Below, piece by piece: positions 27,322-60,233 of a stretch of 64,000 nucleotides of DNA. Made by a program: the position numbers and the translations under genes. The notes below the pieces were generated by a model, which was not told the DNA's origin, ran no database searches, and saw only the letters and a list, made by a program, of their open reading frames with translations. Origin of the DNA: an uncultured Verrucomicrobiae bacterium (lineage in GTDB: Bacteria; Verrucomicrobiota; Verrucomicrobiia; Chthoniobacterales; UBA10450); assembly GCA_963800015.1 (NCBI GenBank), contig CAWCZE010000001.1:5111-69110 (forward strand), in the 5' to 3' direction. How positions within the stretch are numbered: the first letter of the stretch is position 1; the number at the start of each line of letters is the position of its first letter.

Positions 27322-27403
27322 CCACAGATTGCACAGATTTTCACAGATTATTTTGAACAAAGCTGCTGTGTCTGGAAATCTGTGAAATCGGCGAAATCTG
27401 TGG
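27322..27403 (+). repeat. composite leader hairpin (arms made of degenerate CACAGATT repeats) ending at the der start codon
   Basis: CCACAGATTGCACAGATTTTCACAGATT...GAAATCTGTGAAATCGGCGAAATCTGTGG, followed immediately by the ATG at 27404. Confidence 0.7.
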
Positions 27404-28813
27404 ATGAACTCCGTCGCAATCATAGGGCGGCCTAACGTAGGCAAGTCGGCGCTGTTCAATCGCCTCGCCGGAAGGAAGATCGCGATCGTTCACGACCAAC
27501 CGGGGATTACCCGCGACAGAATCTCTGCTGTCTGCGAACGCGGAGCGCGACCGTTCACGGTTTGGGATACCGGCGGCATTTTCGGCCGAGGCGAAGCGGA
27601 ATTGACCAGTCAGGTGCGAGGCGCAGTCGATCAGGCTTTACGCGAGAGCGATTTGGCTCTGTTTGTTGTCGACGCCAAGGACGGTCTCACGCCGGTGGAC
27701 GAAGAGCTCGCCCGCATGCTGCGCAGATCGCGGAAGCCAGTGCTGCTGGTAGTCAACAAGATCGACCATGATAAACATGAGCCGCTTTCGGGCGATTTCG
27801 ATTCGTTAGGTTTCGGAACATCTGTTTCGATCAGCGCCGAACACAATCGCGGGATTGTGGACCTGCTCGAACAGATCGATAAACTGCTGCCGGACGTCGG
27901 AGGTCACAGGTCAGACGTGAGCGGTCAGACGTCAGACGTCGGAGATGAGACGACGACTCCGGTCGCTCAACTCTCAACCCTCAACTCTCAACCGCTTGCG
28001 ATCGCAATCATTGGGCGCCCTAACGTTGGAAAATCCTCGCTGATTAATGCGATCGTTAAGAGCGAGCGCGCGATCGTTAGTGAATTGCCTGGAACAACCC
28101 GTGATTCCGTCGATATCGCCTATGAACGCGATGGCCATCAGTTTCGGTTCATCGACACCGCGGGCATGCGCCGCCGCGGCAAAGTTTCCAGCTCGGTGGA
28201 AGTTTTCAGCGTGATGCGGGCCGAGAAAAGCATTCAACGGGCGGACCTTTGCGTGTTGATCGTGGACCTAACGAGCGGCGTGACAGCGCAAGACAAACGC
28301 ATCGCCGGTTTGATTCAGGAAGCGCGCAAAGGCGGATTGATCGTGTTGAATAAATGGGACCTCGTGAAACCGCAACGCGGCAAGAGTCAGACGATCCGGG
28401 AACTGGCGGATGACGCCCGGGAACGGATTTTCTTTCTCGATTATGCGCCGGTCGTCATCGCATCTGCCGCAACCGGCGAAAACGTTGACCGTATCTTCGG
28501 GATGATCGACAAGATCGAGCTCGCGTCGAAAGCACGGATCGGCACCGGAGTCCTCAATCGCCTGATGCGAGCGGCGTTCGCCGCGAATCCGCCGCCGATG
28601 GTGAAGGGGAAACGATTGAAACTTTTTTATGCTGCTCAATCGAGCGGATCAAAGACCAGGCGGCTTCAGCCGGTCGAAATCGTGTTATTTGTTAACGATC
28701 CTCGCCTGCTTGGGCGCACTTACGCGCGTTACCTGGAAGCGCAAATTCGAGACTGCATGCCCTATCCTGGGGTGCCGATCATTTTGACTTTGCGGCCACG
28801 TAGCCAAAAATAA
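27404..28813 (+). CDS. der: ribosome-associated GTPase Der/EngA, with a repeat-encoded linker insertion
   Basis: There are two GTPase domains (GRPNVGKSALFN and GRPNVGKSSLIN) and a KH-like C-terminus. The inter-domain linker HRSDVSGQTSDVGDETTTPVAQLSTLNSQP is encoded by tandem repeats at 27901-27995. Confidence 0.9.
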   Translation: MNSVAIIGRPNVGKSALFNRLAGRKIAIVHDQPGITRDRISAVCERGARPFTVWDTGGIFGRGEAELTSQVRGAVDQALRESDLALFVVDAKDGLTPVDEELARMLRRSRKPVLLVVNKIDHDKHEPLSGDFDSLGFGTSVSISAEHNRGIVDLLEQIDKLLPDVGGHRSDVSGQTSDVGDETTTPVAQLSTLNSQPLAIAIIGRPNVGKSSLINAIVKSERAIVSELPGTTRDSVDIAYERDGHQFRFIDTAGMRRRGKVSSSVEVFSVMRAEKSIQRADLCVLIVDLTSGVTAQDKRIAGLIQEARKGGLIVLNKWDLVKPQRGKSQTIRELADDARERIFFLDYAPVVIASAATGENVDRIFGMIDKIELASKARIGTGVLNRLMRAAFAANPPPMVKGKRLKLFYAAQSSGSKTRRLQPVEIVLFVNDPRLLGRTYARYLEAQIRDCMPYPGVPIILTLRPRSQK

Positions 28814-28921
28814 CAGTAAGCATGCCGCCTATGGGGGCTTGGGATGCGCTAAAGAGCGCGCGGCTACACGGAATCGAACATTTCGCGGCCGTATCTGTCA
28901 TAATTTGTCTGTAAAAAATAC

Positions 28922-29908
28922 ATGAAATCTACCCAGGAAATCACTCAGGAGGTCCAGGAACTCGGTCGCTGGATTCCGGCGCTTCGCGAACAAGTCTCGC
29001 ATGTGGTCGTCGGCCAGAAATATCTCGTCGACCGGCTGTTGCTCGGCCTTCTCGCCAACGGTCACATTTTGCTCGAAGGCGTTCCCGGTTTGGCCAAAAC
29101 GCTCACCGTCAAGACGATGGCGTCAACGATCCAGACGGGCTTTCAACGACTGCAATTCACGCCCGACCTCTTGCCCGCCGACTTGATAGGCACTCTGATT
29201 TACAATCCGCGCACCGGCGAATTTTCAACGAAACTTGGGCCGATTTTCTCGAACTTAATTCTGGCCGACGAAATCAATCGCGCGCCGGCCAAAGTTCAAA
29301 GCGCATTGCTCGAAGCAATGCAGGAACGCCAGGTCACTATTGGTGAACAAACTTATCCCCTCGCCGATCCGTTTCTGGTTCTTGCGACCCAGAACCCGAT
29401 TGAACAGGAGGGAACGTATCAGCTTCCGGAAGCGCAACTCGATCGGTTCATGTTCAAATTGAACGTTGGTTATCCGCAAAAATCCGAGGAACGCACAATT
29501 CTGGATTTGATGGCCACGTCCGCGCCGGATTTACGCGTCCAGGGAATTGTCGATCCGAAACAGATCATCGCGGCGCGTGATGTCGTGAATCAAATCTACA
29601 TCGACGATCGAGTGAAGGATTACATCGTCGATGTTGTCTGGGCAACTCGCGAACCGGCGACCTACAATCTCGAGCTCGAAGGTTTGATCCGTTATGGCGC
29701 ATCGCCGCGGGCCACGATTTATCTGGCTCTTGGCGCCCGCGCTCACGCTTTTCTCAACGGACGCGGTTATGTTACTCCGCAGGACGTCAAAAGCATCGGT
29801 CCCGACGTATTGCGCCATCGCATCATCGTTAGTTACGAAGCGGAAGCTGAAGAGGTCACCAGCGAAACCATCATCGACCGCATTTTTGCGGGCCTTCCCG
29901 TTCCGTAA
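28922..29908 (+). CDS. MoxR-family AAA+ ATPase (first gene of the Bat operon)
   Basis: ILLEGVPGLAKTLTVKTMA, LILADEINRAPAKVQSALLEAMQERQVT, ATQNPIEQEGTYQLPEAQLDRF. Confidence 0.9.
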   Translation: MKSTQEITQEVQELGRWIPALREQVSHVVVGQKYLVDRLLLGLLANGHILLEGVPGLAKTLTVKTMASTIQTGFQRLQFTPDLLPADLIGTLIYNPRTGEFSTKLGPIFSNLILADEINRAPAKVQSALLEAMQERQVTIGEQTYPLADPFLVLATQNPIEQEGTYQLPEAQLDRFMFKLNVGYPQKSEERTILDLMATSAPDLRVQGIVDPKQIIAARDVVNQIYIDDRVKDYIVDVVWATREPATYNLELEGLIRYGASPRATIYLALGARAHAFLNGRGYVTPQDVKSIGPDVLRHRIIVSYEAEAEEVTSETIIDRIFAGLPVP

Positions 29909-29910
29909 CG

Positions 29911-30811
29911 ATGAACGGTTTGCAGGAAAAGACGGCGGAAATTCTCAAGAAGATCCTGTACGCTCGAAATTAAGACCCGCGGTCTGGTCGACACAGTTTT
30001 CGCGGGCAATTACCACAGTGTCTTCAAGGGACGCGGAATGAATTTCGAAGACGTCCGCGAATATCAACCGGGCGACGAGATTCGGGCGATTGATTGGAAC
30101 GTGACCGCGCGGCTTGGAACTGCGTTCGTGAAAAAGTTTACCGAGGAGCGCGAACTAACGGTCATGTTGATCGTGGACGTCAGCGCGTCCGGAAGCTTCG
30201 GGAGCGCGACTCAATCCAAACGCGAGTTGGCCGCGGAAGTCGCCTGCCTGCTCGCGTTCAGCGCCATTCGAAACAACGACAAAGTCGGTCTCCTTCTGTT
30301 CACAGATCGGGTCGAACTTTTCATTCCGCCCAAGAAGGGCCGTTCGCACACGTTGCGGCTGATTCGCGAGATTCTATTTTTCGAACCGGCCGGGCGCGGA
30401 ACGGACCCGGCATTGGCGCTCGATTATCTGAACCGGATCGTCACTCGGCGCGCGGTGGTGTTTTTCATTTCCGATTTTCAAGCACCCGATTTCTCGCACG
30501 CGCTTGCCGTGAGCGGACGCCGCCACGATTTCATTGCCGTCCGTGTTCAGGACGAACGCGAAACCGTGTTGCCGAATGTCGGCATCATCACGCTCGAAGA
30601 CGCGGAAACCGGCGAGCAAATCGAAATCAACACCGCGGACCGGAACATTCGCACGCAGTTCAGCGATTTGGCCGACCAGAATGCGCGCGAGCTGACCCGA
30701 ACACTGCGGCGTAACAACGTCGACACAATCACGCTGCGAACGAGCGAAGATTATTTGCCGGCGTTGCGCGCGTTCTTCAAGAGTCGCGAACGCCGGGTTG
30801 CGCTCCGATAG
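29911..30811 (+). CDS. DUF58 protein (one frame change near 29950)
   Basis: ...LEIKTRGLVDTVFAGNYHSVFKGRGMNFEDVREYQPGDEIRAIDWNVTARLG... The ATG at 29911 lies 2 nt after the moxR stop. Confidence 0.8.
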
Positions 30812-30815
30812 CATC

Positions 30816-31318
30816 ATGAGCTTCCTCGCCGCCCAGAATTTTCACGAGATCGCGCCGCCGGTGGATTACTCTTTCGTTCCCACGTGGCTGATTTTTGTGG
30901 GAAGTTTCGTCGTAATTTCACTCATCGGTTTGGTCGTTTGGTTGTTTATGCGAAAACCGAACCTGCGTTGCCCCCGAGATTGCCGCGCGACATCGCCCTG
31001 GAAGAACTCGACTCGATCAGCGGTGAAATCGAGACGATGAACCCGTATCAGTTCAGCATTCGCGTCTCAGATATTTTGCGACGTTATGTCACGAATCAAT
31101 ACGCGCTACCGGTTACCCGCCAGACCTCGGTCGAATTTCTCACCGCTCTGGCCAAAGCGTCCTCGTTCTCGCCTAACGAGAAGTCGCTGCTCGAAGATTT
31201 TTTGAATCGATGCGATTTGATCAAGTTCGCGCGATACGAAGCAACATCCGCGGACAGCCGGCTTCTCCTGGAAGAGGCGCTGCGGTTTGTGAAAGGAGAA
31301 CAACTTGCGCTTGCTTGA
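30816..31318 (+). CDS. DUF4381 protein (one frame change near 30950)
   Basis: MSFLAAQNFHEIAPPVDYSFVPTWLIFVGSFVV... joins ...ALEELDSISGEIETMNPYQFSIRVSDILRRYV...LIKFARYE. Confidence 0.7.
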
Positions 31319-32357
31319 CTGGTGGCCGGCAAACACTGCGCTGACCTTCGCGCGTCCGTGGCTTTTGCTGCTCTTGGTCGCAATCCCGTTGCTCGCTTAT
31401 TTGCGCGGGAAACGCGGCCCGGCCGCTGCGCTGACATTTTCGTCGACATCAGCGTTGCGCGCGATTGGTAAACAAAGCGCCGCGCGCGTGGGCAAAATTT
31501 TGCGGGCCATGATTTTTGCGACGCTCGCAATTTTTATCGTTGGACTCTCCCGTCCCCAGCTCGGCAAAAGCCTCACTCAAGTAGAAGCCAGCGGAATCGA
31601 CATCATGCTCGTTCTCGACGTTTCGGGATCGATGCTGACAAAAGACTTCACGATTGGGGGCGACGAAGCGACGCGGCTTGACGCGATTCGTGAGGTTACA
31701 CGCAAGTTTATCGATGGCCGCCCTAACGATCGCATCGGAATAATCGCGTTTGCCGGGCGACCCTACGTGGTCAGTCCAATGACTCTCGATCACGATTGGT
31801 TAACCCAAAATCTCGAGCGCGTGCGGATTGGCCTGGTCGAAGACGGGACGGCAATTGGATCGGCAATGGCCGCGGCGGCCAACCGACTGAATGACAAACA
31901 ATCGAAGAGCCGGGTCCTGGTGTTATTGACGGACGGAGAAAATAACGCTGGGAAAATTTCACCGAACACCGCAGCCGAAGCAGTAAAAGCCCTCAAAATC
32001 CATTTTTACGCGATTGGCGCCGGGATTAACGGTGTCGCACCGGCGCCAATCTACACTTCCCGTGGACCGATGACGGATGCGTTGGGGAACATTTATTATC
32101 AAAACCAGCGGGTAGAATTCAACGAGACCGGGTTGAAAGAAGTAGCGCAAATCGCCGACGGCAAATTCTATCGGGCAACGGACACAAAATCGCTGGAACA
32201 AATCTACAGCGATATCGACAAGCTCGAAAAATCAACGGTCGCAATCAAAAAATATCAGGAGTATCGCGATCTGTTCCCGATTTGCATCATGAGTGGATGC
32301 GGTTTGCTGGTCGCGCAGCTTCTGTTGTCGCAAACCGTGTGGAAAAAATTGCCATGA
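31305..32357 (+). CDS. batA: VWA-domain membrane protein BatA
   Basis: DIMLVLDVSGSMLTKD, GIIAFAGRPYVVSPMT, GTAIGSAM, VLLTDGENNAG. Confidence 0.85.
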   Translation: MRLLDWWPANTALTFARPWLLLLLVAIPLLAYLRGKRGPAAALTFSSTSALRAIGKQSAARVGKILRAMIFATLAIFIVGLSRPQLGKSLTQVEASGIDIMLVLDVSGSMLTKDFTIGGDEATRLDAIREVTRKFIDGRPNDRIGIIAFAGRPYVVSPMTLDHDWLTQNLERVRIGLVEDGTAIGSAMAAAANRLNDKQSKSRVLVLLTDGENNAGKISPNTAAEAVKALKIHFYAIGAGINGVAPAPIYTSRGPMTDALGNIYYQNQRVEFNETGLKEVAQIADGKFYRATDTKSLEQIYSDIDKLEKSTVAIKKYQEYRDLFPICIMSGCGLLVAQLLLSQTVWKKLP

Positions 32358-34609: not shown

Positions 34610-34659
34610 CCCGGAAATTTGAGGGTTGATGGTTGAGAGTTGATAGAACGCCGATGCAC

Positions 34660-37248: not shown

Positions 37249-37249
37249 G

Positions 37250-37330
37250 ATGTAGCTGCCGACCTTTGCATCGGCAGGAGTTGCACGACCTGCCGGCAAC
37301 GGTAGGAACTAGGGCAAGGGCCCTACTGCT
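37250..37330. repeat. REP-like multi-hairpin element (divergent member)
   Basis: TGTAGCTGCCGACCTTTGCATCGGCAG...GTAGGAACTAGGGCAAGGGCCCTAC. Confidence 0.4.
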
Positions 37331-43907: not shown

Positions 43908-43969
43908 CTGTAGCGGCGCTCTCTGAGCGTCGAACGAATTAATCCGGCGGTCATAGACCGCCGCTACAG
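43908..43969. repeat. REP/BIME-like double-hairpin palindrome
   Basis: CTGTAGCGGCGCTCTCTGAGCGTCGAACGAATTAATCCGGCGGTCATAGACCGCCGCTACAG. It starts 2 nt after the valS stop. Confidence 0.75.
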
Positions 43970-43971: not shown

Positions 43972-46624
43972 CTAGAGTTTCTCCCTCGCCTGCTTCAACA
44001 ACCTCAGCTGGTCCAGATAATTCGTCTGGCGCTGGCGATTCAGTTCTACCACGTCCCTCGGCGCGCGATCGACAAACGATTTGTTGTTCAGCTTCGATTC
44101 TACAATGCGCAGATCGGCTTCAATTTTTGCGATTTCCTTATCCAGCCGCGCGCTCTCCGCGGAGGCGTCGACATCTACGATAAGCAAGAATTTCACCAAG
44201 AGCAGTTGTGGCAATCGGCACACCCGCGTCGGCGCTAAAACCCGGATCCACCTTCAATTCGGACGCGTTGAGCAAACGCGCGACTGTTCCCTGCTCGTCG
44301 GTCAATTCGAATTCCTTCGACCGCAAAGCGAACTTTGCTTTCTGATTCGAAGGAATGTGCGCCTGCGCGCGCAAATTGCGGCCTGCCTGAACGGTTTCGT
44401 AAATCGCAGCGACCAGTTTCCGTTTCTCCAGATCCGCATCTTTCAGAGGGAACTTCTTCGGCAAAGGTGCGAACTGAATCGATCCCGTTCCCAAACCGAG
44501 CAGGGACCAAAGCTCCTCGGTGATGTGCGGCATGAACGGATGCAACAAACGCACGATTGCGGACAGGACGTAATCCATCACCGCGAGTGCGGATTTCTTC
44601 CTTGATTCGTCTTCGCCAAAAATCTCGGTCTTCGCCGCTTCAACGAACCAGTCGCAGTAATCGCTCCAGATAAAATCGTAGAGCCGCTGCGCGATGTTAT
44701 TGAATTCGTAATCGCGATAGCCTTTCTCGACCGCGTCGATGGTCTCGTTCAGCCGCGCCAAAAGTTCGATCGCGTAGATCGATAAGTCTTCTCGAGTTTC
44801 GGTTCAGCCATCACTCGGGCCGTGCATTTGGCGAAAACGCGCGACGTTCCAAAGCTTGGTCGCGAAGTTGCGGCCTTCTTCGATTTGCTTGTCGTCGAAT
44901 CGAATGTCCTGGCCGCTCGGCGCGATTCGCATCAGACCGAATCGCAAACCGTCCGCGCCGTATTTATCAATTAAATCCAGCGGATCGGGTGAATTGCCTA
45001 ACGACTTCGACATTTTCCGGCCCTGCTTGTCGCGAATGATGCTGGTGAAGAAAACGTCGTGAAACGGAATATTGTCCTCGGTCTTTGTGGTTTGGCCGGG
45101 CTTGAACTCGAGCCCGGCAAAAATCATTCGGGCGACCCAGAAGAAAATAATGTCCGGCCCGGTAACGAGGGTGGTCGTCGGATAAAATTTCTTTCGCGTT
45201 TTTGGATCCATCGTTTCATAGGCCCACAGCCACGACGAAAACCAGGTGTCGAGCGTGTCGTTATCCTGGATCCAATTCTCCGGATCCTTCGGCGGTTTCA
45301 AACCGACATAAATTTCGGATTTCGGATTTCGGATTTCGGATTTTTCCGTTCCGGTACCACGCCGGAATCCGGTGTCCCCACCAAACCTGGCGGCTGATGC
45401 ACCAGTCCTGAATATTCTTGATCCACTGCTCGTAAACTTTCTCCCAATGGTTGGGATAGAAACGGATGAGATGTTTCTTCACCACCGCGAGCGCTTCTTT
45501 GGTCTTCGGATATTTCAAAAACCATTGTTCGCTTAGCCGCGGCTCGATCGGCACATCGCTGCGATCGCTGAAGCCGACATTGTTTTCGTGCGGCTCGGTT
45601 TTTGCCAGCAGTCCCCTCGCCTCCAATAATTCCGCCGCTCGTTTGCGCGCCTCAAAGCGATCGAGGCCGTGCAATTCCGGAACGGCCGGGCAATCGATTT
45701 TTCCGTCCGCGGTTAGAACATCGATCATCGGCAATTTGTGCCGCTGACCAATCTCGAAATCGACTTTGTCGTGCGCCGGCGTGACTTTCAGAATGCCGGT
45801 GCCGAATTCGGGATCGATCGCATCGTCCGCAACAACCGGAATTTTTTCGCGCGGCAATCGGACGCCAAACCTCTTTGCCGACAAGTTCGGCGTACCGCTT
45901 GTCGTTCGGATGAACTGCAACGCCGGTGTCGGCCATGATCGTTTCCGGCCGCGTCGTCGCGACTTCCAAAAATTTCCCGGGCTGATCGACAATTTCGTAG
46001 CGAACGTAATACAGATTGCCGCGTTGCGGTTTGTTGATGACTTCCTCGTCCGACAACGCCGTTTGGGCCGCCGGATCCCAGTTAATCATCCGGCGTCCGC
46101 GATAGATCAGGCCTTTTTTGTAGAGATCGACAAAGACTTCGAGCACTGCGCGCACGTACGATCTCATCCATCGTGTATCGCTGGCGCGACCAATCGCACG
46201 AGCAGCCGAGCCGTTTCAGTTGCTGAATGATGATGCCGCCGTGTTTGTCCTGCCATTCGAGCACGCGCTGGAGGAACTTTTCACGGCCGAGATCGTGTCG
46301 CGTCACGCCCTCATTTTTGCGCAGCCATTTTTCGACCGCGGTCTGCGTTCCGATTCCGGCGTGATCCATCCCCGGAAGCCAAAGCACTTCAAAGCCCTGC
46401 ATCCGCGCGCGCCGCGCCAGGATATCCTGAATCGAATCGTTTAACACGTGGCCGAGCGTGAGAACACCGGTGATGTTCGGCGGCGGCATCACAATCGAGA
46501 ACGGCTTCTTTTTCGAATTCGCATCGGCCTCGAAGTCGCGGTTATCGATCCAACGCTGATACCATTTCGGCTCAACGGTTTTTGGATCGTAGGTTTTGGA
46601 AAGCTCGGCCATTTTCGGTTTCAA
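43972..46624 (-). CDS. valS: valine--tRNA ligase (at least 5 frame changes as assembled)
   Basis: The N-terminus is [21 protein letters not shown]...[13 protein letters not shown] (HIGH-like). The sequence also has [22 protein letters not shown] and [12 protein letters not shown] (KMSKS). The C-terminus is a coiled coil. Pieces are in ORFs 46082, 45652, 45261, 44804, 44138 and 43972. Confidence 0.9.
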
Positions 46625-49994: not shown

Positions 49995-50057
49995 TTTGTA
50001 GCGGCAGTCTCTGACTGTCGAAATAACCTGTCGGCGGTCAGAGACCGCCGCTACAAA
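49995..50057. repeat. REP/BIME-like double-hairpin palindrome
   Basis: TTTGTAGCGGCAGTCTCTGACTGTCGAAATAACCTGTCGGCGGTCAGAGACCGCCGCTACAAA. It fills the whole glyQS-stop to yjbR-start gap. Confidence 0.75.
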
Positions 50058-50060
50058 AAA

Positions 50061-51422: not shown

Positions 51423-51438
51423 AAAAAGCAGAAACGGT

Positions 51439-51530
51439 CCACAGATTTCGCAGATTAGCGCAGATTTTCCAACACCCGAGAAATTTCTGTGTCTGTTTTC
51501 CTAATCGGCGAAATCTGCGTCAATCTGTGG
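51439..51530 (-). repeat. composite leader hairpin (CACAGATT/CGCAGATT repeats), same family as 27322-27403, 16 nt upstream of the glyQS ATG
   Basis: CCACAGATTTCGCAGATTAGCGCAGATTTT...AATCGGCGAAATCTGCGTCAATCTGTGG. Confidence 0.7.
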
Positions 51531-51543
51531 ATAAATGAATCTC

Positions 51544-51990: not shown

Positions 51991-52075
51991 ACCTTCTAGA
52001 TAGAATGGCATCTGTTGTAGGGCAAGCGCTCCGCTTGACTGGTCACTGCTCACTGATCACTGTTCACTTCTTCAG

Positions 52076-52147
52076 GCGCGGTTAGCTCAGTGGTAGAGCG
52101 CTTGCTTCACACGCAAGAAGTCGCAGGTTCGAACCCTGCACCGCGCA
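52076..52147 (+). tRNA. tRNA-Val (anticodon CAC)
   Basis: GCGCGGTTAGCTCAGTGGTAGAGCGCTTGCTTCACACGCAAGAAGTCGCAGGTTCGAACCCTGCACCGCGCA. The cloverleaf is complete and no CCA is encoded. Confidence 0.9.
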
Positions 52148-52173
52148 TTGTGCTTTTTGAGCGTGCGCGCCCC

Positions 52174-53516
52174 GTGATTTCTGCGCAATCTCAAACCGTG
52201 GCAGACGATTCCGTTTTCGTTAAACATCCGCCCGGCTTTCGACCGCGGCGCGGATTGAACTGGGCCTTCGTCGGTCTGCTTTACACGTCGTTTTACATGT
52301 GTCGCTACAACTTGCCGCTGGCAAATAGCGCGATCAGTAGCGAGTTCGGGTTCAACAAAGCGCAGATGGGAAATATCATTACCACCGCGCTGCTCGCCTA
52401 CGCCTTCGGCCAGATCATTAACGGACTTTTGACCGACCGCCTCGGAGGCAAACGCGCGATGCTGATCGGCGCCGCGGGCACGATTGTGATGAACGTTGTC
52501 TTCGGAGCCGCTTCCTTCTGGGGTTTGCTTTGGCTTTTCGTCGTCATTCGGGGAATCGACGGCTACATGCAGGCATTCGGCGCGCCCGGAATGGTGAAGA
52601 TCAATGCCGCGTGGTTCCGCCCGACCGAGCGCGGAAGCTTCGCCGGCATCTTTGGTTTTATGATCAACCTCGGTCGCTTCGGGATTAACAATCTCGGCGC
52701 CGCTTTGCTGGGTGGCTTTTTGTTTTTGGGAATGATCCGGATCCCGCCATTGCACTGGCGCTGGCTATTTTGGGTCCCCGCTGGAATTGCCCTGATTGTC
52801 GGCACGCTCATGGCGCTGATCGTCAAGGACGCGCCGGAAGACGCCGGATTTCCTTCAGTGAATCCGCAAGAGGAAACCGGCGGCGAGGTTCGGGCCCGGG
52901 TCTGGGATGTTTTCAAAATTATCGTAACAAACCCGGTGGTCTGGATTATCGCGTGCGCCTACGCATGCACCGGAGCGGTGCGACAGGGCATCGACCAATG
53001 GTTTCCGCGCTTCATGCTGGAAGTGCATCATGTCGATTTCAAATCCGCGCAATTCCAATTACTCGGGGCGGCCATACCCATCGTTGCCTCCGCCGGCTCG
53101 CTTGTTTCGGGTATTATCTCGGACAAAGTTTTTCGAGGTCGGCGAGCGCCGGTTGCATCGGCACTGTATTTGGTCGAGACGCTAATCATTCTCGCTGCGG
53201 CGCAGTTCCATTCGGTGAACGCGGCAATCATTTTCCTGGTTTTGATTTCGCTGACGGCGAACTCCACTCACTCGATTCTCGGCACGGCCGCGGCGATGGA
53301 TATTGGCGGCGCTAAGATGGCGGGTTTTGCGTCCGGCCTGATCGATTCTTTCCAATACTTCGGCGGCAGTCTCGCCGGTTATTTTCTCGGCAAACTTCTC
53401 GATCTTAGTTGGGGCTGGTATTTCTATTTCATGGCGCCATTCGGCTTGATAGGAGGCGCGCTGATGCTGTCGATCTTAGGAAAAGTGAGCCTGGCCAAGC
53501 CGAGAGACGGTTGTAG
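52174..53516 (+). CDS. MFS transporter (organophosphate/GlpT-UhpC-like); both ends uncertain
   Basis: Part of ORF 52090..53769, whose 5' end overlaps tRNA-Val. It has GTG candidates at 52174 and 52198 and 12-TM-type sequence (GQIINGLLTDRLGGKR, DGYMQAFGAPGMVKI). The reading frame runs through REP 53511-53578 into the convergent gene, so the true stop is probably near 53500-53520. Confidence 0.65.
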
Positions 53517-53578
53517 CGGCGTTTGTTCTCAAACGCCGAATCAGATGAATAGGTGCTTGAGAACAAGCACCTCTACAA
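53511..53578. repeat. REP/BIME-like double-hairpin palindrome (divergent inner stems)
   Basis: TTGTAGCGGCGTTTGTTCTCAAACGCCGAATCAGATGAATAGGTGCTTGAGAACAAGCACCTCTACAA. Its right end supplies the TAG stop of the radical SAM gene. Confidence 0.7.
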
Positions 53579-54681
53579 CATTTCCAGCTGCTGTTGCGAT
53601 CTTCGAAACGCTGCCGTCGAAAGCGTCGGCCGTTCGCCCATCCCAGCCCGGCGACAGGCAATTTCGAACATGTTTCCGATTTGTTCGGCGAAAGCTCCTT
53701 CGCCAATCTGGCGCTTCCGCCATCGCGAATCATAAAGTTTTCCGCCGCGAAAACCGCGCACCTGATTGAGGACCTTCTCTTTTCGTTCCGGAAAATGTTC
53801 GTCCAGCCAACGTTCGAACAATGGCGCAACTGCCCACGGCAATCGCAACAGAACATGACCGGCAAATTGCGCGCCTGCTTTTGCGCATGCGGCAACAATC
53901 GCCGGAATTTCGTGATCGTTAATCCCAGGAATTACCGGAGCGACCATTACGCCGACAGGAATTCCTGCGGCTCGCAATTGCGCAACCGCTTCCAGTCGCG
54001 CAGCCGGTGCAGATGTTCGCGGCTCGAGAATTTGTTGGAGCTTCGGATCGAGTGATGTCACTGAAAGATTTACTACCGCGCAACGATCACGCGCGAGATC
54101 CGAAAGAAGGTCGATGTCGCGCGTAACAAGCCGGTTCTTCGTCAGAATGCCGACTGGGTTGCGGAATTTCGCGAGAACTTCGAGACAACCGCGGGTGATT
54201 TTCAGTTTGCGTTCGATCGGCTGATAACAATCGGTCACTCCGCTCATCATCAACAGCTGCGGTTTCCATTTCGGCGAGGACATTTCGGCTTCCAGCAATC
54301 GGGGCGCATCGGCCTTGACCATGATCCGCGATTCAAAATCAAGTCCGGCGGAAAAGCCGAGATACTCATGCGTCGGTCGCGCGAAACAATAAATGCATCC
54401 GTGTTCGCAACCACGATACGGATTCACGCTGGTTTCAAATCCGACATCGGGGCTTTGATTGCGCGCCACGATTGTTTTGGTCGCGTCCCGAAAATACTGA
54501 GTCGGGACGTTTGGGCTTTTCTTCCGCATCAGGATCGTCATCGACCACATCGATGTCGGTCAGATCAACGTGAAGTTTTTCGAAGCGATTAGCCGGACTC
54601 CAGGATGCGCCGCGCCCGTGAATCGCCTCGCGACTTTGGGGCGTTTCCTTGATCTACCGGGCTGAATTTCGCCTTCGCCAT
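53573..54681 (-). CDS. PA0069-family radical SAM protein (N-terminus frame-disrupted)
   Basis: SVNPYRGCEHGCIYCFARPTHEYLG (CxxxCxxC). Upstream, another frame reads HGRGASWSPANRFEK. The candidate ATG is at 54681. Confidence 0.75.
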
Positions 54682-54805
54682 ACTTGAATGTTCATCTGAA
54701 CATAGTGATTTGTCCAGCCGATTCTTGATCCGTTTGGCGGCCAGCTTGCTGAACTATGAACCAGTGGCACACTTGTCACTCGTCACAGGTCACTGCTCAC
54801 TTTTT

Positions 54806-54893
54806 GGAGGGGTGGTCGAGCGGTTTATGGCTCCGGTCTTGAAAACCGGCAAGGCGCAAGCCTTCGTGGGTTCGAATCCCACCCCCTCCGCCA
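54806..54893 (+). tRNA. tRNA-Ser (anticodon UGA), CCA encoded
   Basis: GGAGGGGTGGTCGAGCGGTTTATGGCTCCGGTCTTGAAAACCGGCAAGGCGCAAGCCTTCGTGGGTTCGAATCCCACCCCCTCCGCCA, with a long variable arm. Confidence 0.9.
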
Positions 54894-55516
54894 TCAACGG
54901 TTTGACGTTTGATGCTCGATCTTCGGTTTCGGCAATAGCCAGCGCCAAACGACGTAAGCCGATAAAATTCCCAGCACCGCGGCGCAAACCACGTCAGATA
55001 ACCAGTGCGCGCCGAGATAAATCCGCGAAAATCCAATCAGGATTGGAATCGCAAGGCACGGCAGTCCGATCCGCCAATTCGCCAGCAACAAGACGGCAAA
55101 AAATCCGAGCGAGGCGTCAACATGTCCGGACGGAAATGAGTGATACTTCGAATCACTCCATCGCGGACCATTCCACATTTGCTCCGATTTGACTGACGGC
55201 CGCGCCCGCCCGCTCGTAACTTTGATCGCGCGACCAACGAGGCCGGCGATCGCCAACGCGATCAGCATCGCCAGAAAAATTCGCATCCACTTTTTGCTTC
55301 CGCGCGCCCACGCAACGCCGACACAACCCAGCCCAACTAGAAAATGCTCGGGCCAATCACCAAACCGGCTCACGTTTCGCATCAAGTGGTAAACACTTCG
55401 GTTTTGGTGTTGCGCCATAAAATCCCGAACCGCGTTGTCGAAATAGAATGCCGACTGCAATTACGACCGCAGCGATCAGAATGGCGATGATCCAGAAAAC
55501 CGGGCGTTGCTTCACA
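54894..55516 (-). CDS. PAP2-family phosphatase (N-terminal TM in another frame)
   Basis: KVTSGRARP...SFPSGH...SRIYLGAHWLSDV are the three PAP2 motifs. The stop abuts the tRNA-Ser 3' end. Confidence 0.75.
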
Positions 55517-55541
55517 AATAAGTTCCCGTCAGTGGTTTGAA

Positions 55542-55615
55542 CTCTTACTCTTGCTCATTCTCTTACTCTTAATCGACCGAAATCGAGTAAGAGCACGAGT
55601 AAGAGCATGAGCAGG
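55542..55615 (+). repeat. composite hairpin (CTCTTACTC repeats) engulfing the start codon of the GT39/GT83 gene
   Basis: CTCTTACTCTTGCTCATTCTCTTACTCTTAATCGA...TCGAGTAAGAGCACGAGTAAGAGCATGAGCAGG. The ATG at 55607 lies inside the right arm. Confidence 0.7.
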
Positions 55616-57058
55616 ATAAACTCAGCCGCTGGAAACTACGCCATCTTATTTTTTGTTTGCGTGGCTTTTCACGTCATTGGCACGTGGAGCGTTCCGTTGA
55701 TCGATCGCGACGAGCCGCGATTCGCTGAAGCGTCGCGGGAAATGATCGAGCGCGGTGATTACATCGTTCCGCATTTCAATAATCAGCTTCGTTTGGATAA
55801 ACCGCCGCTCACCTATTGGGCCCAGGTCGCCAGCTACAAGATTTTTGGGGAGAATGATTTCGCGGCGCGCTTTCCTTCCGCGGTCGCCGCGGCGCTGGTT
55901 GCGATAACGATTTTGGCATGGGGCCGGCAGATCGGCGGCGATCGGGCGGCCTGGTGGGCGGCGATTATTTTCACGCTCTCGCTGCAGACGTTTGTTCACG
56001 CCAAAGCCGCAGTCGCAGACATGTGGCTGGTTTTGTTTATGACGACAGCGCACTGGGCGGGATGGGAATTGATCGCGAAACGCGAAACGCGAACTGCGAA
56101 ATGGCGAACCACAATGGCGGTTGGTGGATCTTTTACCTTTCTCTTGCGTTGGGTTTTCTGGCCAAAGGCCCGATTGCCTGGACGCCGTTGTTGACTGTTG
56201 CGGTGATGAAATTTTTGGCGCTTGATGTTGAGTTGGCGCGGCGCTTCAAGTTCGTCCGCGGAATTTTGTTGATGCTTGCAATCGTCGCGCTCTGGGGAAT
56301 TCCGGCCTTAATCCAGACCCACGGGGAATTTCTGCGCATCGGCATCGGCCGTCACGTGATCGGCCGCTCGATCGGTGCGATGGAAGGCCACGGCTCAAAT
56401 TCGTTAGGCACTTATCTCCTGTTGCTGCCGTTTTATTTCGTGACCGTCTTCGCCAGTTTTTTTCCGTGGTCGCTCAAACTGCCGGCGCTGACAAAAAAAC
56501 TCTGGCGCGAACGGGACCAGACGGACCTTTATCTGCTGAGCGGCGTCGCAATTATTTTTGTCATCTTCACGCTCATCAAAACCAAGCTGCCGCATTACAC
56601 CCTGCCCGCGTTTCCGTTGCTGGCGTTGCTGGTCGCGCGACACGTTTCCACGGAACGTTTTGTTAAAACTGCCGCAATCGCGGTCGGCTGTCATCTATCT
56701 CGCGGTCGCGCTATTCGCCGCGCCCTTCGTTGCCCGATTCTTTCCGGCAGCGGAACTTTATCGACAAGCGCGAGCCGATCTCAAACCGGAGATGGAATTT
56801 GGCGCGATCGAGTTCCAGGAACCGAGTCTCGTTTGGTATTTTCGATCGCGCGCGAAAGGCTGGATGGTTCCGTTAAAGGGAAAAAACGCGACCGAATTCA
56901 TGCAAAGAAGTGGGCCGCGTTTTGTCATTTTGCCAACTGAGATGGGTGAGGACGCGTTCCCAAATTCACCGGCGACTTGGAAAACGTTCACCACAACCGG
57001 CTTCAACATCGCCAAAGGCAAGAAAGTTGATCTCACTCTGCTCTTAAAACCGGAATAA
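55607..57058 (+). CDS. ArnT/PMT-like glycosyltransferase (GT39/GT83; two frame changes)
   Basis: PLIDRDEPRFAEASREMIERGDYIVPHFNNQLRLDKPPLTYW. Pieces are in ORFs 55607, 55918 and 56558. Confidence 0.7.
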
Positions 57059-57062
57059 TTAA

Positions 57063-57134
57063 CCACAGAGCACACGGAGACCACGGAGTAACAATCCCTT
57101 TAAATATTCTCTGCGATCTCCGTGGCCTCTGTGG
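57063..57134 (+). repeat. composite leader hairpin (CCACAGAG/CACGGAGA repeats) 16 nt upstream of the ruvA ATG
   Basis: CCACAGAGCACACGGAGACCACGGAG...CTCTGCGATCTCCGTGGCCTCTGTGG. Confidence 0.7.
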
Positions 57135-57150
57135 TAAATGACAAACTGAA

Positions 57151-57756
57151 ATGATCACGTTCCTGGACGGCAAACTTGTGACCGCATTGCCAACCCAAGC
57201 GACGGTCGACGTGAACGGGGTCGGCTACGAAGTTCTGATTCCGCTTTCGAGCTACGATAAGCTTCCGGCGGCAGGCCAGCCGATCCGGATTCTCACCCAC
57301 CTTGCTGTCCGCGAAGACGCTCACATTCTTTACGGATTCATGAGTGCGCCGGAGCGCGATTTGTTTCGGTTACTCGTAAACAACGTCAGCGGAATCGGTC
57401 CAAAGCTCGCGCTGGCCGTGCTAAGCGGGATGAGTGTGACGAATTTCAAAACCGCGGTCGTGAATTCCGACATCGGCGCGATTTCGAAAATCAGCGGACT
57501 CGGCAAGAAAACGGCCGAGCGAATCGTCCTGGAATTGAAAGATAAACTTGGAGTCGCGGCTGCATGGGAAGCCGCGAGCGCGGCTCACGCGCCAACCCCC
57601 GAAGCGGAACAAGCGAACGAAGCAATTTTGGCGCTGATCGCGCTCGGTTACAAACAGGTCGACGCGCACAAAGCGGTCCGAGATTTGCAAGGCCAGGCGA
57701 AATCGGCTGAAGAACTGGTGAAACTCGCGCTGAAACGCATCGCTTCGGGAAGATAA
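57151..57756 (+). CDS. ruvA: Holliday junction branch migration complex subunit RuvA
   Basis: MITFLDGKLV...VDVNGVGYEVLIP..., LLVNNVSGIGPKLALAVLSG, ISGLGKKTAERIVLELKDK. Confidence 0.9.
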   Translation: MITFLDGKLVTALPTQATVDVNGVGYEVLIPLSSYDKLPAAGQPIRILTHLAVREDAHILYGFMSAPERDLFRLLVNNVSGIGPKLALAVLSGMSVTNFKTAVVNSDIGAISKISGLGKKTAERIVLELKDKLGVAAAWEAASAAHAPTPEAEQANEAILALIALGYKQVDAHKAVRDLQGQAKSAEELVKLALKRIASGR

Positions 57757-57777
57757 GCGAACGCGAAGGCAAAATAA

Positions 57778-57975
57778 GCAAACGCCCAACGCTGAACGCC
57801 GAATCTCGAATTCAGAGGTCTGCGATTCAGCATTGGACGTTCGGCGTTGGGCGTTCGGCGTTTTCCCCTGCTATTTACCTATAAGCAAACACCCAACGCG
57901 CAGCATCCAACGCCCAATGTCCAATTCAGACGGCTGCATTCAGCATTGGACGTTGGGCGTTCGGCGTTCGACGTT
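57778..57975 (+). repeat. two tandem copies of a hairpin element of about 100 bp (CGCCCAACG / CGTTGGGCG repeats)
   Basis: Right arms are TTCAGCATTGGACGTTCGGCGTTGGGCGTTCGGCGTTTTCCCC (about 57826-57868) and TTCAGCATTGGACGTTGGGCGTTCGGCGTTCGACGTTTTCCCC (about 57939-57980). Each is preceded by its inverted partner. Confidence 0.65.
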
Positions 57976-57982
57976 TTCCCCG

Positions 57983-59372
57983 ATGTTGGTTAAAGACGAC
58001 AAACTGGCCGCAATCCGCGGTTCCTTCCCCAAAGAAGGCCTCTTCGCCGAAAAGGATTGGCTGCTTTCGCCGGACGCGTTTCCGATCGAAAAGAAGTTTC
58101 AGACCGAACTCGAGCAGCTCGGTCATCGCCTGTTGGTTTTTCAGCGCGCCTGCAATCAGCTTTACCAGCTAAGCGTCAAAGGAAAACAGCCCGCCTGGGT
58201 CGCGCGTTATCTCGACGCCGGCAAACCTAAAGAGTTGATCGAATTTTCGCAGCGCAAAGAAATTCGCGACGATCTGCCCCGCGTCATTCGTCCCGACCTG
58301 ATCCTGACCGATGACGGTTATATCATTGCGGAAATCGACTCGGTGCCCGGTGGAATCGGGCTCACCGGCTGGCTCAATCAAACTTACTCAAGCTTCGACA
58401 GCGAAATTATTGGCGGCGCAGACGGCATGCTCGCAGGATTTCAAAGCGTGCTGCCGAATGGCGGCGATATCGTGATTTCACAGGAGGCCGCGACTTACCG
58501 GCCGGAGATGGAATGGGTCGCCGCGCGACTTAATCAGAAGATACTCGATTCTGGATCCTCGATACTCGATCAAGAGAAGACCACGCGTCCAGAATCCAGC
58601 ATCCAGTATCCAGAATCCAGCATCGTGGCGGACAGTTGCGGCCGAAAACTACGAGCCGCGCGACGGCGTTGCGGTTTACCGCTTCTTCGAACTATTCGAT
58701 CTGCCGAACATTCCAAAGATCGAAAATCTTTTGCGCGCGAACGCTGACGGCCGCGTGACAATCACGCCTCCGATCAAACCGTTTCTGGAAGAGAAAATGT
58801 GGTTCGCTCTTTTCTGGTTGAAACCGCTCCAGGAATTCTGGCGACGCGAACTCGGCGAGAAATATTTCCTGCAGCTCCAAAAAGTGATCCCCTATTCGTG
58901 GCTGCTTGATCCCACCCCGTTGCCGCAACACGCGGTCATTCCCCGTCTGGAAATTCACGATTGGCGCGAAGCGGCCAGGTTCAGCCAGAAAGATCGCGAT
59001 CTGCTCTTAAAAATCAGCGGATTTTCGCCACTTGGGTGGGGCAGCCGTGGAATTTCGCTCGGCTCCGATCTCGCCCATGCCGAATGGGAAAAACGGATCG
59101 AAAACGCGCTGACTACTTTCGATTCAGCGCCGACGATCCTGCAACGGTTTCATAAAGGTCGACTGATCGAACATCGCTATTGGGATTCGGATTCGGGCGA
59201 ACTAAAAATAATGAAGGGCAGGGTGCGGCTGTGCCCGTACTACTTTGTCGAATCAAACAAAGTGCAGCTCCGCGGCGCGCTCGCTACGATTGTTCCCGCC
59301 GACAAAAAATTCGTCCACGGCATGCGGGACGCAATTTTGGTTCCGTCCAGAGCTGACCAGGCGAAGGCCTAA
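57983..59372 (+). CDS. circularly permuted ATP-grasp / glutathionylspermidine-synthase-like protein (one frame change near 58630; internal repeat insertion)
   Basis: MLVKDDKLAAIRGSF...RPDLILTDDGYIIAEIDSVPGGIG... joins ...VYRFFELFDLPNIPKIE...PIKPFLEEKMWFALF...RLCPYYF. The family assignment is approximate. Confidence 0.5.
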
Positions 59373-59729
59373 CGAGTTACTCTCGCTCGAGGCCTCTCAG
59401 GTTCTCTCTGGCGGCGGAGTCACCGCGCGACGCCGCCAATTTGAGCCACCAAACAGAAAGCCCTCGATCGTTCCGGGCGGAGTAATAGTAATTGCCATGC
59501 GTCTCGCGGAGACGTTATCGCCAAGAAGGGCGTCCCGCTCGGTCGCTCGAAGCTGGTTCTTTGTTGAAATGGTCTTCGGCGGAACGCCGTAGTGGACCAG
59601 CCCGAAAGACCGACAGCGAGGCAGCCATCAGGAGGAACGAAGACTTCATAGCTAACGAAAACCTTAGAACTAGAACTGCCGGGCGAAAAGAGCAGACTAA
59701 CAACACACGAGACACGGCCAGGAGCTGGC

Positions 59730-60098
59730 TTACAAGTCGTAAGTGGTGATTTCGAGGATGTGACCGTCAGGATCGTGAAAGTAAATCGAGTGCGAGATTT
59801 CGTGGTCCTCGAATTCGAATTTGATGCCGCGTTGTTTTAGTTCTTCCTGAGCGGCGAGGAAATTCTGTCGCGTCGCGCGAAACGCCAGATGCAGCATTCG
59901 GATGCCGCCGCGAGCGGGTTCGTCTGATTTGGCAGGAAACAATGCGAGCGCGGTGGTGCCTTTGCCGATGAAGGTGGGAACGCCGCCCCATGCCCCTTCG
60001 TGAAGACGTTTGAAGCCGAGCACGTCGATGTACCAATTCGCGGAACGCTCGATATCGCGCACGCTGATCGCGACATGATCGATTCCTTCAAGCTCCAT
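59730..60098 (-). CDS. VOC-family (glyoxalase/bleomycin resistance/dioxygenase) protein
   Basis: Intact 122-aa ORF: GIDHVAISVRDIERSANWYIDVLGF...HLAF...SIYFHDPDGHILEI. Confidence 0.8.
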   Translation of the reverse strand: MELEGIDHVAISVRDIERSANWYIDVLGFKRLHEGAWGGVPTFIGKGTTALALFPAKSDEPARGGIRMLHLAFRATRQNFLAAQEELKQRGIKFEFEDHEISHSIYFHDPDGHILEITTYDL

Positions 60099-60104
60099 AG
60101 GAAT

Positions 60105-60233
60105 TAGACAGGATTTACAGGATTAAATTGGATTCAAATACAAATCGTCGAAGAATTCGTCAATCCTGTCAGTCTCCCATCGCCCGCGGAGCGGCCGTCC
60201 ACCTCGGACAAAAATCCTGTTAATCCTGTCTGA
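60105..60233. repeat. inverted repeats of ACAGGATT units in the divergent VOC / 5'-nucleotidase intergenic region
   Basis: The left arm is TAGACAGGATTTACAGGATTAA (60105-60126). An internal copy is GTCAATCCTGTCAG (60159-60172). The right arm is AAAATCCTGTTAATCCTGTCTGA (60211-60233). Confidence 0.65.

Follow-up and report, generated by a model that had tools for sequence, protein, structure and literature searches.

Arrays of head-to-tail repeats of seven nucleotides have been described in several groups of bacteria. In Xanthomonas (GGGAATC) and Nostoc (GGGGAYT), heptamer arrays are enriched in intergenic DNA, mostly between co-directional open reading frames (ORFs) and no more than about 50 bp from one, and 70-75 convergent inverted pairs per Xanthomonas genome are able to form stem-loops (Rehm et al., 2015; PMC4692102). 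In Haemophilus influenzae, the (ATCTTTC)n array of the hmw 5′ untranslated region (5′-UTR) is transcribed, and its RNA folds into a long hairpin, one arm of which has about 10 repeats; RNase III cuts this hairpin, and a change in repeat number requires both the hairpin and transcription (Rapun-Araiz et al., 2025; PMC12721329). The TAACTGA repeats of Beggiatoaceae, Cyanobacteria and Bacteroidetes consist of 2-6 heptamers, the last of which stops about 1 nt short of a start codon without a Shine-Dalgarno sequence; some arrays are inside ORFs, a single inverted repeat was found among 170 sets, and their phyletic distribution is unexplained (MacGregor, 2015; PMC4679880). Repetitive extragenic palindromic (REP) sequences, bacterial interspersed mosaic elements (BIMEs) and REP doublets forming hairpins (REPINs) are small dispersed intergenic hairpins, often in co-directional spacers, sometimes in genes, and variable between strains. 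REPINs are inverted doublets that form one long hairpin, and REPs have a conserved family sequence with a GTAG/CGTC tag and are linked to REP-associated tyrosine transposases (RAYTs) (PMC3733652, PMC3116915). Here we analyzed hairpins with arms of tandem 7-9-mers in a 64,000-nt stretch of DNA (the window) from an uncultured Verrucomicrobiae bacterium of the Chthoniobacterales (contig CAWCZE010000001.1, positions 5,111 to 69,110), and compared them with related soil sequences.

These hairpins are non-random, change by indels of about unit length, are gained and lost at orthologous sites, keep their pairing, fill the spacers in which they lie, and share their repeats with loops of proteins. With a probability of roughly 55%, we consider them to be simple-sequence-repeat (SSR) palindromes, grown by slippage and inverted duplication and kept where a self-folding insert is harmless, and not gene-specific regulators; they would thus be one form of an abundant and fast-evolving SSR DNA in the Candidatus Udaeobacter/Chthoniobacterales lineage, a statement to which we give the same rough probability.

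Tandem-repeat hairpins and the abundance of their units

An earlier note on this DNA had listed six hairpins with a common architecture. All six were found, as seven stem-loops since the spacer after ruvA has two (Table 1). As it had described, one arm consists of tandem 7-9-mers and the other of inverted copies, and the units differ between loci while the architecture remains constant. Both Tandem Repeats Finder (TRF) and a repeat finder reported the arms as degenerate tandem arrays. RNA folding (minimum free energy, with a z-score against 200 dinucleotide shuffles) gave -31 to -48 kcal/mol over the seven stem-loops and z -4.6 to -7.9, and not one of the 200 shuffles folded as well at any hairpin; with DNA parameters, z was -3.9 to -6.5. 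Three hairpins start with CCACAG and end with CTGTGG, and other pairs of ends are AAACGCC...GGCGTTT, CTCTTAC...GTAAGAG and GACAGGATT...AATCCTGTC. The arms of the der and glyQS hairpins are about 80% alike by eye, with the imperfect unit AATCGGCGAAATCTG common to both. For glyQS, the distance of 16 nt to the ATG was right; the gene itself is on the minus strand and its ATG is corrected to 51422. An orthologue of the GT39 hairpin was found in relative L004 (86% identity over 81 nt) and others in L009 and L044, most relatives having none.

Table 1. Tandem-repeat hairpins and direct arrays of the window. Fold: folded positions, RNA minimum free energy (kcal/mol), z-score.
Feature	Positions	Strand	Repeats and context	Fold
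der hairpin	27320..27405	+	between CDP-alcohol phosphatidyltransferase stop (27314) and der ATG (27404); left arm CACAGATT x3, right arm AATCTGTG-type x3	27318-27408; -32.1; -4.84
glyQS hairpin	51437..51532	-	CACAGATT family; between OsmC-like stop (51544) and glyQS ATG (51422), both minus strand	51436-51534; -37.5; -5.73
GT39/PMT hairpin	55542..55616	+	CTCTTAC/TGAGCA-type units; divergent PAP2-GT39/PMT region; GT39 ATG (55607) within right arm	55538-55620; -31.4; -6.06
ruvA hairpin	57059..57139	+	CCACAGAG/CACGGAGA units; from GT39 stop (TAA 57056-57058) to ruvA ATG (57151)	57058-57140; -37.7; -7.94
first hairpin after ruvA	57777..57863	+	AACGCC/GGCGTT-type heptamers; ruvA stop (57756) upstream	-48.4; -6.50
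second hairpin after ruvA	57888..57975	+	7 nt from its end to ATG 57983	-39.8; -4.83
VOC/5′-nucleotidase hairpin	60102..60235	.	ACAGGATT-unit arms of 23 nt, 91% complementary, 88-nt loop; divergent region, nucleotidase putative	60100-60238; -45.7; -4.62
holB array	9458..9487	-	direct-only GATGTTC x4.3 on + strand, beside presumed holB start	
FMN-reductase array	25385..25420	-	direct-only, CTGAAAA-type on gene strand; fills 38 nt between tRNA-Leu 3′ end and ATG	
batD array	34619..34643	+	direct-only TTGAGGG x3.6, upstream of batD ATG (34654)	
tRNA-Val array	52038..52068	+	TCACTGN x4.4; between divergent OsmC-like gene and tRNA-Val; stops 7 nt before mature 5′ end	
tRNA-Ser array	54770..54801	+	GTCACTN x4.6; downstream of conserved promoter, in pre-tRNA leader	
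Der linker arrays	27893..27993	+	21-nt (3x7) period and CTCAACT x3.9, translated between the two GTPase domains	
valS array	45312..45343	-	perfect (CCGAAAT) array, translated as 11-letter peptide	
GT39/PMT loop array	56074..56101	+	CGCGAAA x4; relatives with AACGYC or CATCAAA arrays at this place	
array pair in gene after ruvA	58540..58624	+	inverted GATACTC x4.4 / TCCAGAA x5.3 in linker; weak fold; frame breaks here	z -2.2

The relatives comprised 160 loci of at most 20 kb each around ruvA (numbered with the prefix L), from two RuvA scans of soil metagenome contigs and metagenome-assembled genomes (MAGs), and 5 further loci around der, obtained by exact-protein look-ups. RuvA of the window (57151-57756) is 85-94% identical to proteins on soil contigs and MAGs labelled Candidatus Udaeobacter, Chthoniobacterales or Verrucomicrobiota. 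A census of arrays with a period of 6-11 and at least 2.8 copies over 536 kb, the window and close relatives, gave 84 arrays against 6-14 in dinucleotide shuffles, an excess of about 8-fold; period 7 was dominant (50 of 96 arrays). An ungapped hairpin detector misses bulged hairpins such as that of der, hence each array was scored for a reverse complement of itself within 220 nt. Such an inverted partner was found for 27 of the 84 arrays, and for 0-1 in controls in which the array was merely reversed or complemented. An array typically has about 3-6 copies of a 7-9-nt motif, and paired arrays form a stem-loop of 20-45 bp.

The 161 heptamer arrays correspond to 48 canonical heptamers, the commonest of which are AAACATC (25), AACGTCC (20), AACTCTC (14), AAACCTC (11), AACGCTC (10) and AACGCCC (10). 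Four unit families (AACGYC, CATCAAA, ATTTSCG and CACAGAK) recur across sites; the dominant heptamer families reappear in the GT39 loop, the post-ruvA spacer and the flanks of tRNA-Ser. Hairpins of the CACAGAK family occur at three sites of the window (der, glyQS and ruvA), at +7.1 kb in L124, and immediately upstream of ruvA in a Limisphaerales MAG (L051).

The direct-repeat-only versions that had been noted near holB, the FMN reductase gene and batD are all three present according to TRF and the repeat finder. The window has more arrays than were listed there, upstream of tRNA-Val and tRNA-Ser and within coding sequence. For tRNA-Ser, the leader is 18 nt and non-repetitive in relatives, and in the window it is enlarged to GTCACTC GTCACAG GTCACTG CTCACTT; judged by its letters, this array looks like -10/discriminator sequence amplified into the pre-tRNA leader. 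Arrays are also located 3′ of tRNA-Ser in many relatives, where they extend into the C-terminal tail of the convergent PAP2 gene. The tRNA-Ser promoter is itself conserved and sigma-70-like (window 54740-54805; L025, L027, L078 and others), with TTGCTC, a 14-nt spacer and TGgCACA(A/C)T. As for start codons, (A)ACTGAA stands immediately before the ATG of ruvA (57141-57153) and of the FMN reductase gene (25383-25395, minus strand), and ATCTGAA before the presumed holB start (9452-9462, minus strand); these motifs resemble the TAACTGA repeat (PMC4679880). A clear Shine-Dalgarno sequence was seen only at 26043 (AGGAGG).

Turnover, pairing and position among relatives

At orthologous positions in about 160 related soil contigs, spacers alternate between lengths of 0-17 nt, right-arm-only forms, full hairpins of differing units, and insertions of REPs or of a miniature inverted-repeat transposable element (MITE). 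Between GT39 and ruvA, the relatives closest by RuvA identity have a 16-17-nt spacer (TGAAGCGTTGGCTGAA) or the mini-palindrome GAAGCGTTGCTTC. Other relatives have 3-7 copies of GATTTAAC touching the ATG, the left arm being absent, or a full GTTGAAGC/GCTTCAAC hairpin, in many cases with a MITE of about 130 nt in its loop. The CACAGAG hairpin is present in eight sequences, window included, and still other relatives are repeat-free with a conserved promoter-like motif instead. The ruvA-to-next-gene spacer goes from an overlapping ATGA up to 226 nt, and its hairpins belong to at least four unit families (AACGYC, CATCAAA/CCTCAAA, AACTCTC, AGTCTTA); the AACGCC/GGCGTT-type family fills it in many relatives. 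The der leader measures 18-150 nt in relatives, with varied contents, and two of them have a different hairpin, which is GTAG-tagged. Close to the der ATG, GACGATCCACCATTC is present in some relatives at the place where the window's left arm begins CGATCCACAGATT, and L163 has the right-arm-like ATCGGCGTAATCTGTGG directly before the ATG and no left arm. The hairpins, which the earlier note had treated as a leader architecture, are not conserved with the gene: at the ruvA, next-gene, GT39 and der leaders they may be present or missing, and one unit gives way to another. A conserved regulator of der, ruvA or glyQS would not be expected to come and go in this way among close relatives.

Change was also seen at a finer scale. 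Copy number varies from 3 to 7 at orthologous sites, and among contig pairs that are 95-99.9% identical there are seven indels of at least 4 nt. Three of the seven are insertions of 8, 7 and 5 nt, roughly the length of a unit, and all three are in the left arm of the post-ruvA hairpin.

Several other sequences occupy the same sites. The hairpin after ruvA is tandemly duplicated as a whole in the window (57773-57880 and 57881-57982), each copy having a ATAAGCAAAC start and a CGTTTTCCCC end; a single hairpin was seen at this site in the spacers of other relatives that were inspected. A second hairpin family of the window (26633-26697, 43908-43969, 49995-50057, 53510-53579), with GTAGCGGC...GCCGCTAC ends, is of the GTAG-tagged REP type described for the Planctomycetes-Verrucomicrobia-Chlamydiae (PVC) superphylum (PMC3733652) and sits in co-directional and convergent spacers; similar REPs replace the left arm of the post-ruvA hairpin in relatives. 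The MITE-like element of about 130 nt has GTCATGTTGAGCGGAGCGAAACATCTC...GAGATTCTTCGCTTCGCTCAGAATGAC as terminal inverted repeats and lies repeatedly in the GTTGAAGC/GCTTCAAC hairpin loop, in L005 (about 9850-9950) and upstream of ruvA in L003, L009, L013, L015, L044 and many of L081-L160; it is also found in the PAP2/GT39 region of L003, L009 and L044. In place of repeats, the motif GGTTTGCAGTTTGC, 7-8 nt, CTGTTAGGGATTGC, which may be a ruvA promoter or operator, stands 20-60 nt upstream of ruvA in L002, L006, L010, L012, L018, L019, L024-L026, L085-L087, L108, L110, L115, L119, L147, L152 and L155. Upstream of der, L161 (1352-1452) and L163 have a GTAG-tagged hairpin, GGGGTCGTAC...GTACGACCCC(G/A)TAG, with tandem AACATTC units in its arms, which is an intermediate between the REP and the tandem-repeat hairpin classes.

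Pairing is maintained through these changes. In eight orthologous CACAGAG (ruvA) hairpins, 89% of the pair cells defined by the window fold are paired, against at most 59% with a slid partner. Four pairs changed on both sides, for example from CACAGAG/CTCTGTG to CACGGAG/CTCCGTG and to CACACAG/CTGTGTG, and the observed values of two measures of both-side change were reached by only 7-15 of 500 shuffles. On the sense strand of these eight hairpins, G.U outnumbers A.C 10 to 6, and a hand tally across full post-ruvA hairpins, whose sequences are related to each other, gave 52 versus 35. Folding energies of the sense and antisense strands do not separate RNA from DNA, and the G/T-rich right arms fold on themselves through palindromic ACGT cores. 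The right arm and the 3′ loop of the ruvA hairpin (TTATTCTCTGCG, CTGTGGTAAA) are better conserved than its left arm. A LexA-box reading of CTGT...ACAG was dropped, as no conservation among orthologues was apparent by eye.

In the window, 4-23 nt separate the upstream stop codon from the stem, and 0-16 nt separate the stem from the start codon. Between ruvA and the next gene (99 loci, of which 24 have spacers below 60 nt), a stem-loop of at least 14 bp was found in 72 of the 75 longer spacers; the median distances are 2 nt from stop to stem and 8.5 nt from stem to start, and 89% of the spacer is inside stem-loops. Between GT39 and ruvA (38 loci, 13 below 60 nt) all 25 longer spacers have such a stem-loop, with medians of 2 and 6 nt and 93% of the spacer covered. 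Thus the right arm does end 0-16 nt from the ATG or contain it, as had been claimed, but closeness to the stop codon mirrors this closeness to the start. Since the stems abut the stop as closely as the start, the hairpins fill the whole spacer.

The context of the arrays was counted on 1.09 Mb of Udaeobacter-like sequence with our own approximate Markov gene calls and a tolerance of 60 nt. After collapse of orthologues, 245 arrays gave 57 sites: 17 in co-directional, 7 in divergent and 4 in convergent spacers, 19 in genes, and 10 unplaced. By these approximate calls, enrichment at 5′ leaders is not seen, the ratio of 17:7:4 matching the background of 427:126:121 for co-directional, divergent and convergent spacers. 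The 28 intergenic sites lie in about 86 kb and the 19 others in about 827 kb of predicted genes, so that sites are about 20-fold denser in spacers. Gene finders based on codon usage and on a 4th-order Markov model, trained on long ORFs, discriminated weakly and misplaced starts; a blastp-based gene map swallowed arrays into ORFs and called shadow ORFs, and the unreliable context census from that map was left unused. The idea of 5′-leader devices tied to start codons, which the earlier note had raised, is not supported, in view of the symmetry on the stop side, the background-like mix of spacers, the 19 intragenic sites and the presence or absence of hairpins among close relatives.

Within genes, arrays are translated. 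Relative to the Thermus enzyme, the insert of valyl-tRNA synthetase (ValRS) falls between the residues that align to 417 and 448; it recurs in frame in relatives and is missing from more distant homologues. In GT39/PMT, two conserved helices flank a hypervariable loop, which some genomes have in minimal form and which in others is the direct translation of AACGYC or CATCAAA arrays (SNAQRPTLN, QTSNIKHQTS). The occurrence of arrays in protein loops indicates that the array-making process is not limited to leaders and that selection decides where arrays stay. More generally, loops of conserved essential proteins contain 7-residue repeats that are heptamer arrays read in frame, and their content is hypervariable among relatives (GT39 orthologues L002-L159).

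Pfam backs the labels CDP-alcohol phosphatidyltransferase, class II tRNA synthetase (glyQS), OsmC-like, PAP2, PMT/GT39 and VOC/glyoxalase, as well as BatD, FMN reductase and a DNA polymerase III delta′ fragment. For the gene after ruvA, which had been labelled ATP-grasp, no Pfam match was obtained, nor for its intact 464-residue orthologue in L005; this gene (57983-59372; L005 10795-12189) encodes 465-496 residues and is conserved in every relative examined. The GT39/PMT stop in Table 1 is a correction of an earlier call. Frame breaks are numerous in conserved genes of the window: at 45341-45345 (valS), about 9232 (holB), 55918-56194 and 56940-57058 (GT39), 58561-58640 (gene after ruvA), 60253-63000 (putative 5′-nucleotidase) and within 1-8000. 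Removal of one T of the T5 run at 45341-45345 mends the valS break, which suggests homopolymer errors of a long-read assembly; a heptamer copy-number frameshift was rejected for valS, the break being a 1-nt homopolymer discrepancy. In the gene after ruvA, the frame is regained by losing either 1 nt or one 7-nt unit.

Proposed growth by slippage and the rival explanations

If the hairpins are SSR palindromes, replication slippage would lengthen and shorten the arrays, and the second arm may come from local inverted duplication, from template switching, or from outward growth of a small palindrome. The GACGATCCACCATTC/CGATCCACAGATT correspondence near the der ATG and the ATCGGCGTAATCTGTGG of L163 without a left arm point to local seeds. 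Tolerance would then set survival: where co-transcribed genes are ancestrally 0-17 nt apart, only a self-folding insert is likely to be harmless. Placement appears to track tolerance, since the same families are read in frame in the GT39, ValRS and Der loops and the mix of spacers is like the background. In a transcript, the stem would bring together the upstream stop and the downstream start, which lie at medians of 2 nt before and 6-8.5 nt after it; the base of the stem could be unzipped by a ribosome that terminates upstream, so that the start becomes accessible, and translational coupling could be kept across an insert of 70-230 nt. By analogy with the Haemophilus hmw leader, such long near-perfect duplexes would be natural substrates of RNase III, with likely effects on the processing or stability of mRNA.

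A number of points weigh against this explanation. A few unit families recur at unrelated sites and even in a distant order, an example being the CCACAGAT hairpin upstream of ruvA in the Limisphaerales MAG, which is not expected from arbitrary local slippage and hints at dispersal or sequence specificity. The divergent copies (GT39/PAP2 and VOC/5′-nucleotidase) are not explicable by stop-start coupling. The counts of G.U and A.C pairs are not decisive, so that an RNA-level role is unproven and the constraint on pairing may act on RNA or on DNA, and the stronger conservation of the right arm and 3′ loop at ruvA suggests some extra constraint. Also, we made the gene calls ourselves, and a single 20-kb neighbourhood supplied most of the sites. 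Finally, we infer transcription of the whole hairpin, its cutting by RNase III and the coupling effect.

A first alternative, which seems doubtful to us, is that the hairpins are non-autonomous mobile elements (foldback-, REPIN- or MITE-like), copied by a hairpin-recognising enzyme such as a RAYT or an IS200-IS605-type tyrosine transposase and remodelled later by slippage. The recurrence of CACAGAK hairpins at der, glyQS, ruvA, L124 and L051 would be explained in this way, as would the AATCGGCGAAATCTG unit and the loop CTGTGTCTG shared by the der and glyQS copies, and the AACGYC hairpins with a AATTCAGA...CTGCATTC loop that L003 and L004 have upstream of tRNA-Ser as well as after ruvA. The window CACAGAG hairpin stands in for the TGAAGCGTTGG spacer of its closest relatives with no local precursor, a whole hairpin has been duplicated in tandem at 57773-57982, and the GTAG-type REPs and the MITE of the same genomes indicate that a hairpin-mobilising activity is probably present. 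However, we found no fixed target-site duplication (flanks often read ..TNA | TAA.., but these letters extend the stem) and no conserved terminal tag, the GTAG/CGTC tetranucleotide of REPs being absent from the ends of the tandem-repeat hairpins. A blastn-short search with the six hairpins at E 1e-3 linked no paralogous copies and matched only orthologous ones, so diverged are the copies at different sites. Differing unit families at one site also speak against copying, and single arms and mini-palindromes of 1+1 units fit gradual growth. No transposase is linked to the hairpins, though none was searched for. Mobility may be part of the truth.

Rather unlikely, in our opinion, is a combination in which an enzyme seeds a few families (AACGYC, CATCAAA, ATTTSCG, CACAGAK) into spacers and loops, and/or the hairpins have been co-opted as a stop-start "zipper". 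Candidates for the seeding enzyme would be a nuclease or transposase specific for hairpins, a reverse transcriptase, and a polymerase or primase prone to slippage. A seeding enzyme, if true, would be a bacterial counterpart of foldback elements; the zipper, if true, would mean that translational coupling survives insertions of 70-230 nt in a streamlined genome.

The hairpins could also be dedicated cis-regulatory leader RNAs, which occlude the starts of der, glyQS, ruvA and other genes in response to a signal. Right arms that end 0-16 nt before the ATG or contain it, the rarity of Shine-Dalgarno sequences upstream of genes here, which could make access to the start region matter, and the compensatory changes that keep the pairing would all agree with this, and a leader hairpin with a heptamer-repeat arm has experimental precedent (PMC12721329). 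Nevertheless, such dedicated riboregulators are unlikely: presence varies among close relatives, the nearest of which have spacers of 0-17 nt, one and the same leader holds unrelated units in different genomes, proximity to the stop codon equals that to the start codon, the same repeats occur in protein loops and tRNA flanks, and the downstream genes have no common function. A scan with Rfam 15 matched no family: only tRNAs reached the gathering threshold, and below it there were generic miRNA-precursor hairpins (E 0.17-0.47).

We regard as quite improbable that the arrays are DNA-level modules, that is, iterated sites for a sigma or other factor, the palindrome providing two-fold symmetry. 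Many units have TTG on one strand (GTTGGAC, GTTGAAG, TTGAGGG, TTGACGA), but its orientation relative to the downstream gene is inconsistent. Right-arm-only ruvA leaders always open with TTGACG, and several loci have TTTAAC 17 nt further on, 7-8 nt before the ATG, a geometry that would give a leaderless transcript; yet TTTAAC is without the key A2 and T6 of the -10 element. The CACTGN repeats at tRNA-Val resemble the CACA(A/C)T -10 element of the tRNA-Ser promoter, and the better conserved right arm at ruvA would fit a binding site. Against this, a consensus scan gave no promoter-like sites in the hairpins, no convincing -35/-10 pairs were seen by eye in loops or arrays, periods of 7-9 bp leave the sites off one face of the helix, and the same units occur in coding loops.

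A role as terminator or 3′-end stabiliser of the upstream gene, as proposed for REP elements, is very improbable, although most hairpins are just past a stop codon in co-directional pairs, GTAG REPs are in comparable positions, and TTT(T) follows some stems (for example GGCGTTTTCCCC after both post-ruvA hairpins). No U-tract follows the der or ruvA hairpins, and a terminator scan listed no full hairpin, only two short minus-strand stems within the left arm at 57781-57803; two copies are in divergent promoter regions, where there is no 3′ end, and complete termination would shut off any downstream gene without space for its own promoter. An assembly or sequencing artefact, to which the several frameshifts of the window and at least one homopolymer error (T5 run 45341-45345) might point, is effectively refuted by the same elements at orthologous positions in dozens of independent assemblies from various projects and platforms.

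Candidatus Udaeobacter, described as genome-streamlined, ranks among the most abundant bacteria of soil. Much of the non-coding DNA examined here consists of self-folding repeats that turn over faster than the neighbouring genes. For annotation, arrays lengthen ORFs, blur start codons and put 7-residue repeats into ValRS and Der. For strain typing, the number of units differs between near-identical contigs. For operon biology, the spacers offer a natural experiment on the insertions that intercistronic junctions tolerate, and the lineage provides many independent loci at which to ask why some bacteria over-represent heptamer repeats.

Comparison with described repeat classes

The earlier note did not recognise a described element class, a view that published work does not support: inverted pairs of heptamer SSRs (PMC4692102), heptamer arrays abutting starts (PMC4679880) and a leader hairpin with a heptamer arm cut by RNase III (PMC12721329) are all known. 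The present arrays have the properties of the heptamer SSR or short tandemly repeated repetitive (STRR) class, namely head-to-tail iteration, over-representation, intergenic enrichment and indels of about unit length. From REPs they differ in being built of iterated 7-9-mers and in having no tag. A likeness also exists with the eukaryotic Foldback transposons (such as Drosophila FB), whose long inverted arms of variable length consist of short tandem subrepeats; those elements are kilobase-scale and often non-coding, with a transposase in some copies, whereas no mobility is shown for the hairpins described here.

TAACTGA repeats and cyanobacterial STRR heptamers match the direct-only arrays (FMN reductase, batD and the right-arm-only ruvA leaders). 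TAACTGA is, however, a single unit with a strong forward orientation to the start, whereas units here are diverse, frequently paired in inverted orientation and inconsistent in direction. Among cases studied by experiment, the hmw leader is the best model of such an RNA; its repeat region likewise adopts a long hairpin, the folds reported here being in silico. The hmw case concerns one phase-variable virulence locus, with repeats in the left arm only and a unique, G-rich right arm; in the present hairpins arrays make up both arms, the neighbours are housekeeping genes, and the elements are known from sequence alone.

The convergent inverted heptamer pairs of Xanthomonas have the same architecture as the paired arrays found here (27 of 84). 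Those pairs use one G-rich unit genome-wide, with G-quadruplex potential, whereas in the present lineage, which belongs to another phylum, there are 48 canonical heptamers, mostly not G-rich, in addition to 8-9-mers; here, too, coding loops contain arrays, and orthologous sites document their gain and loss.

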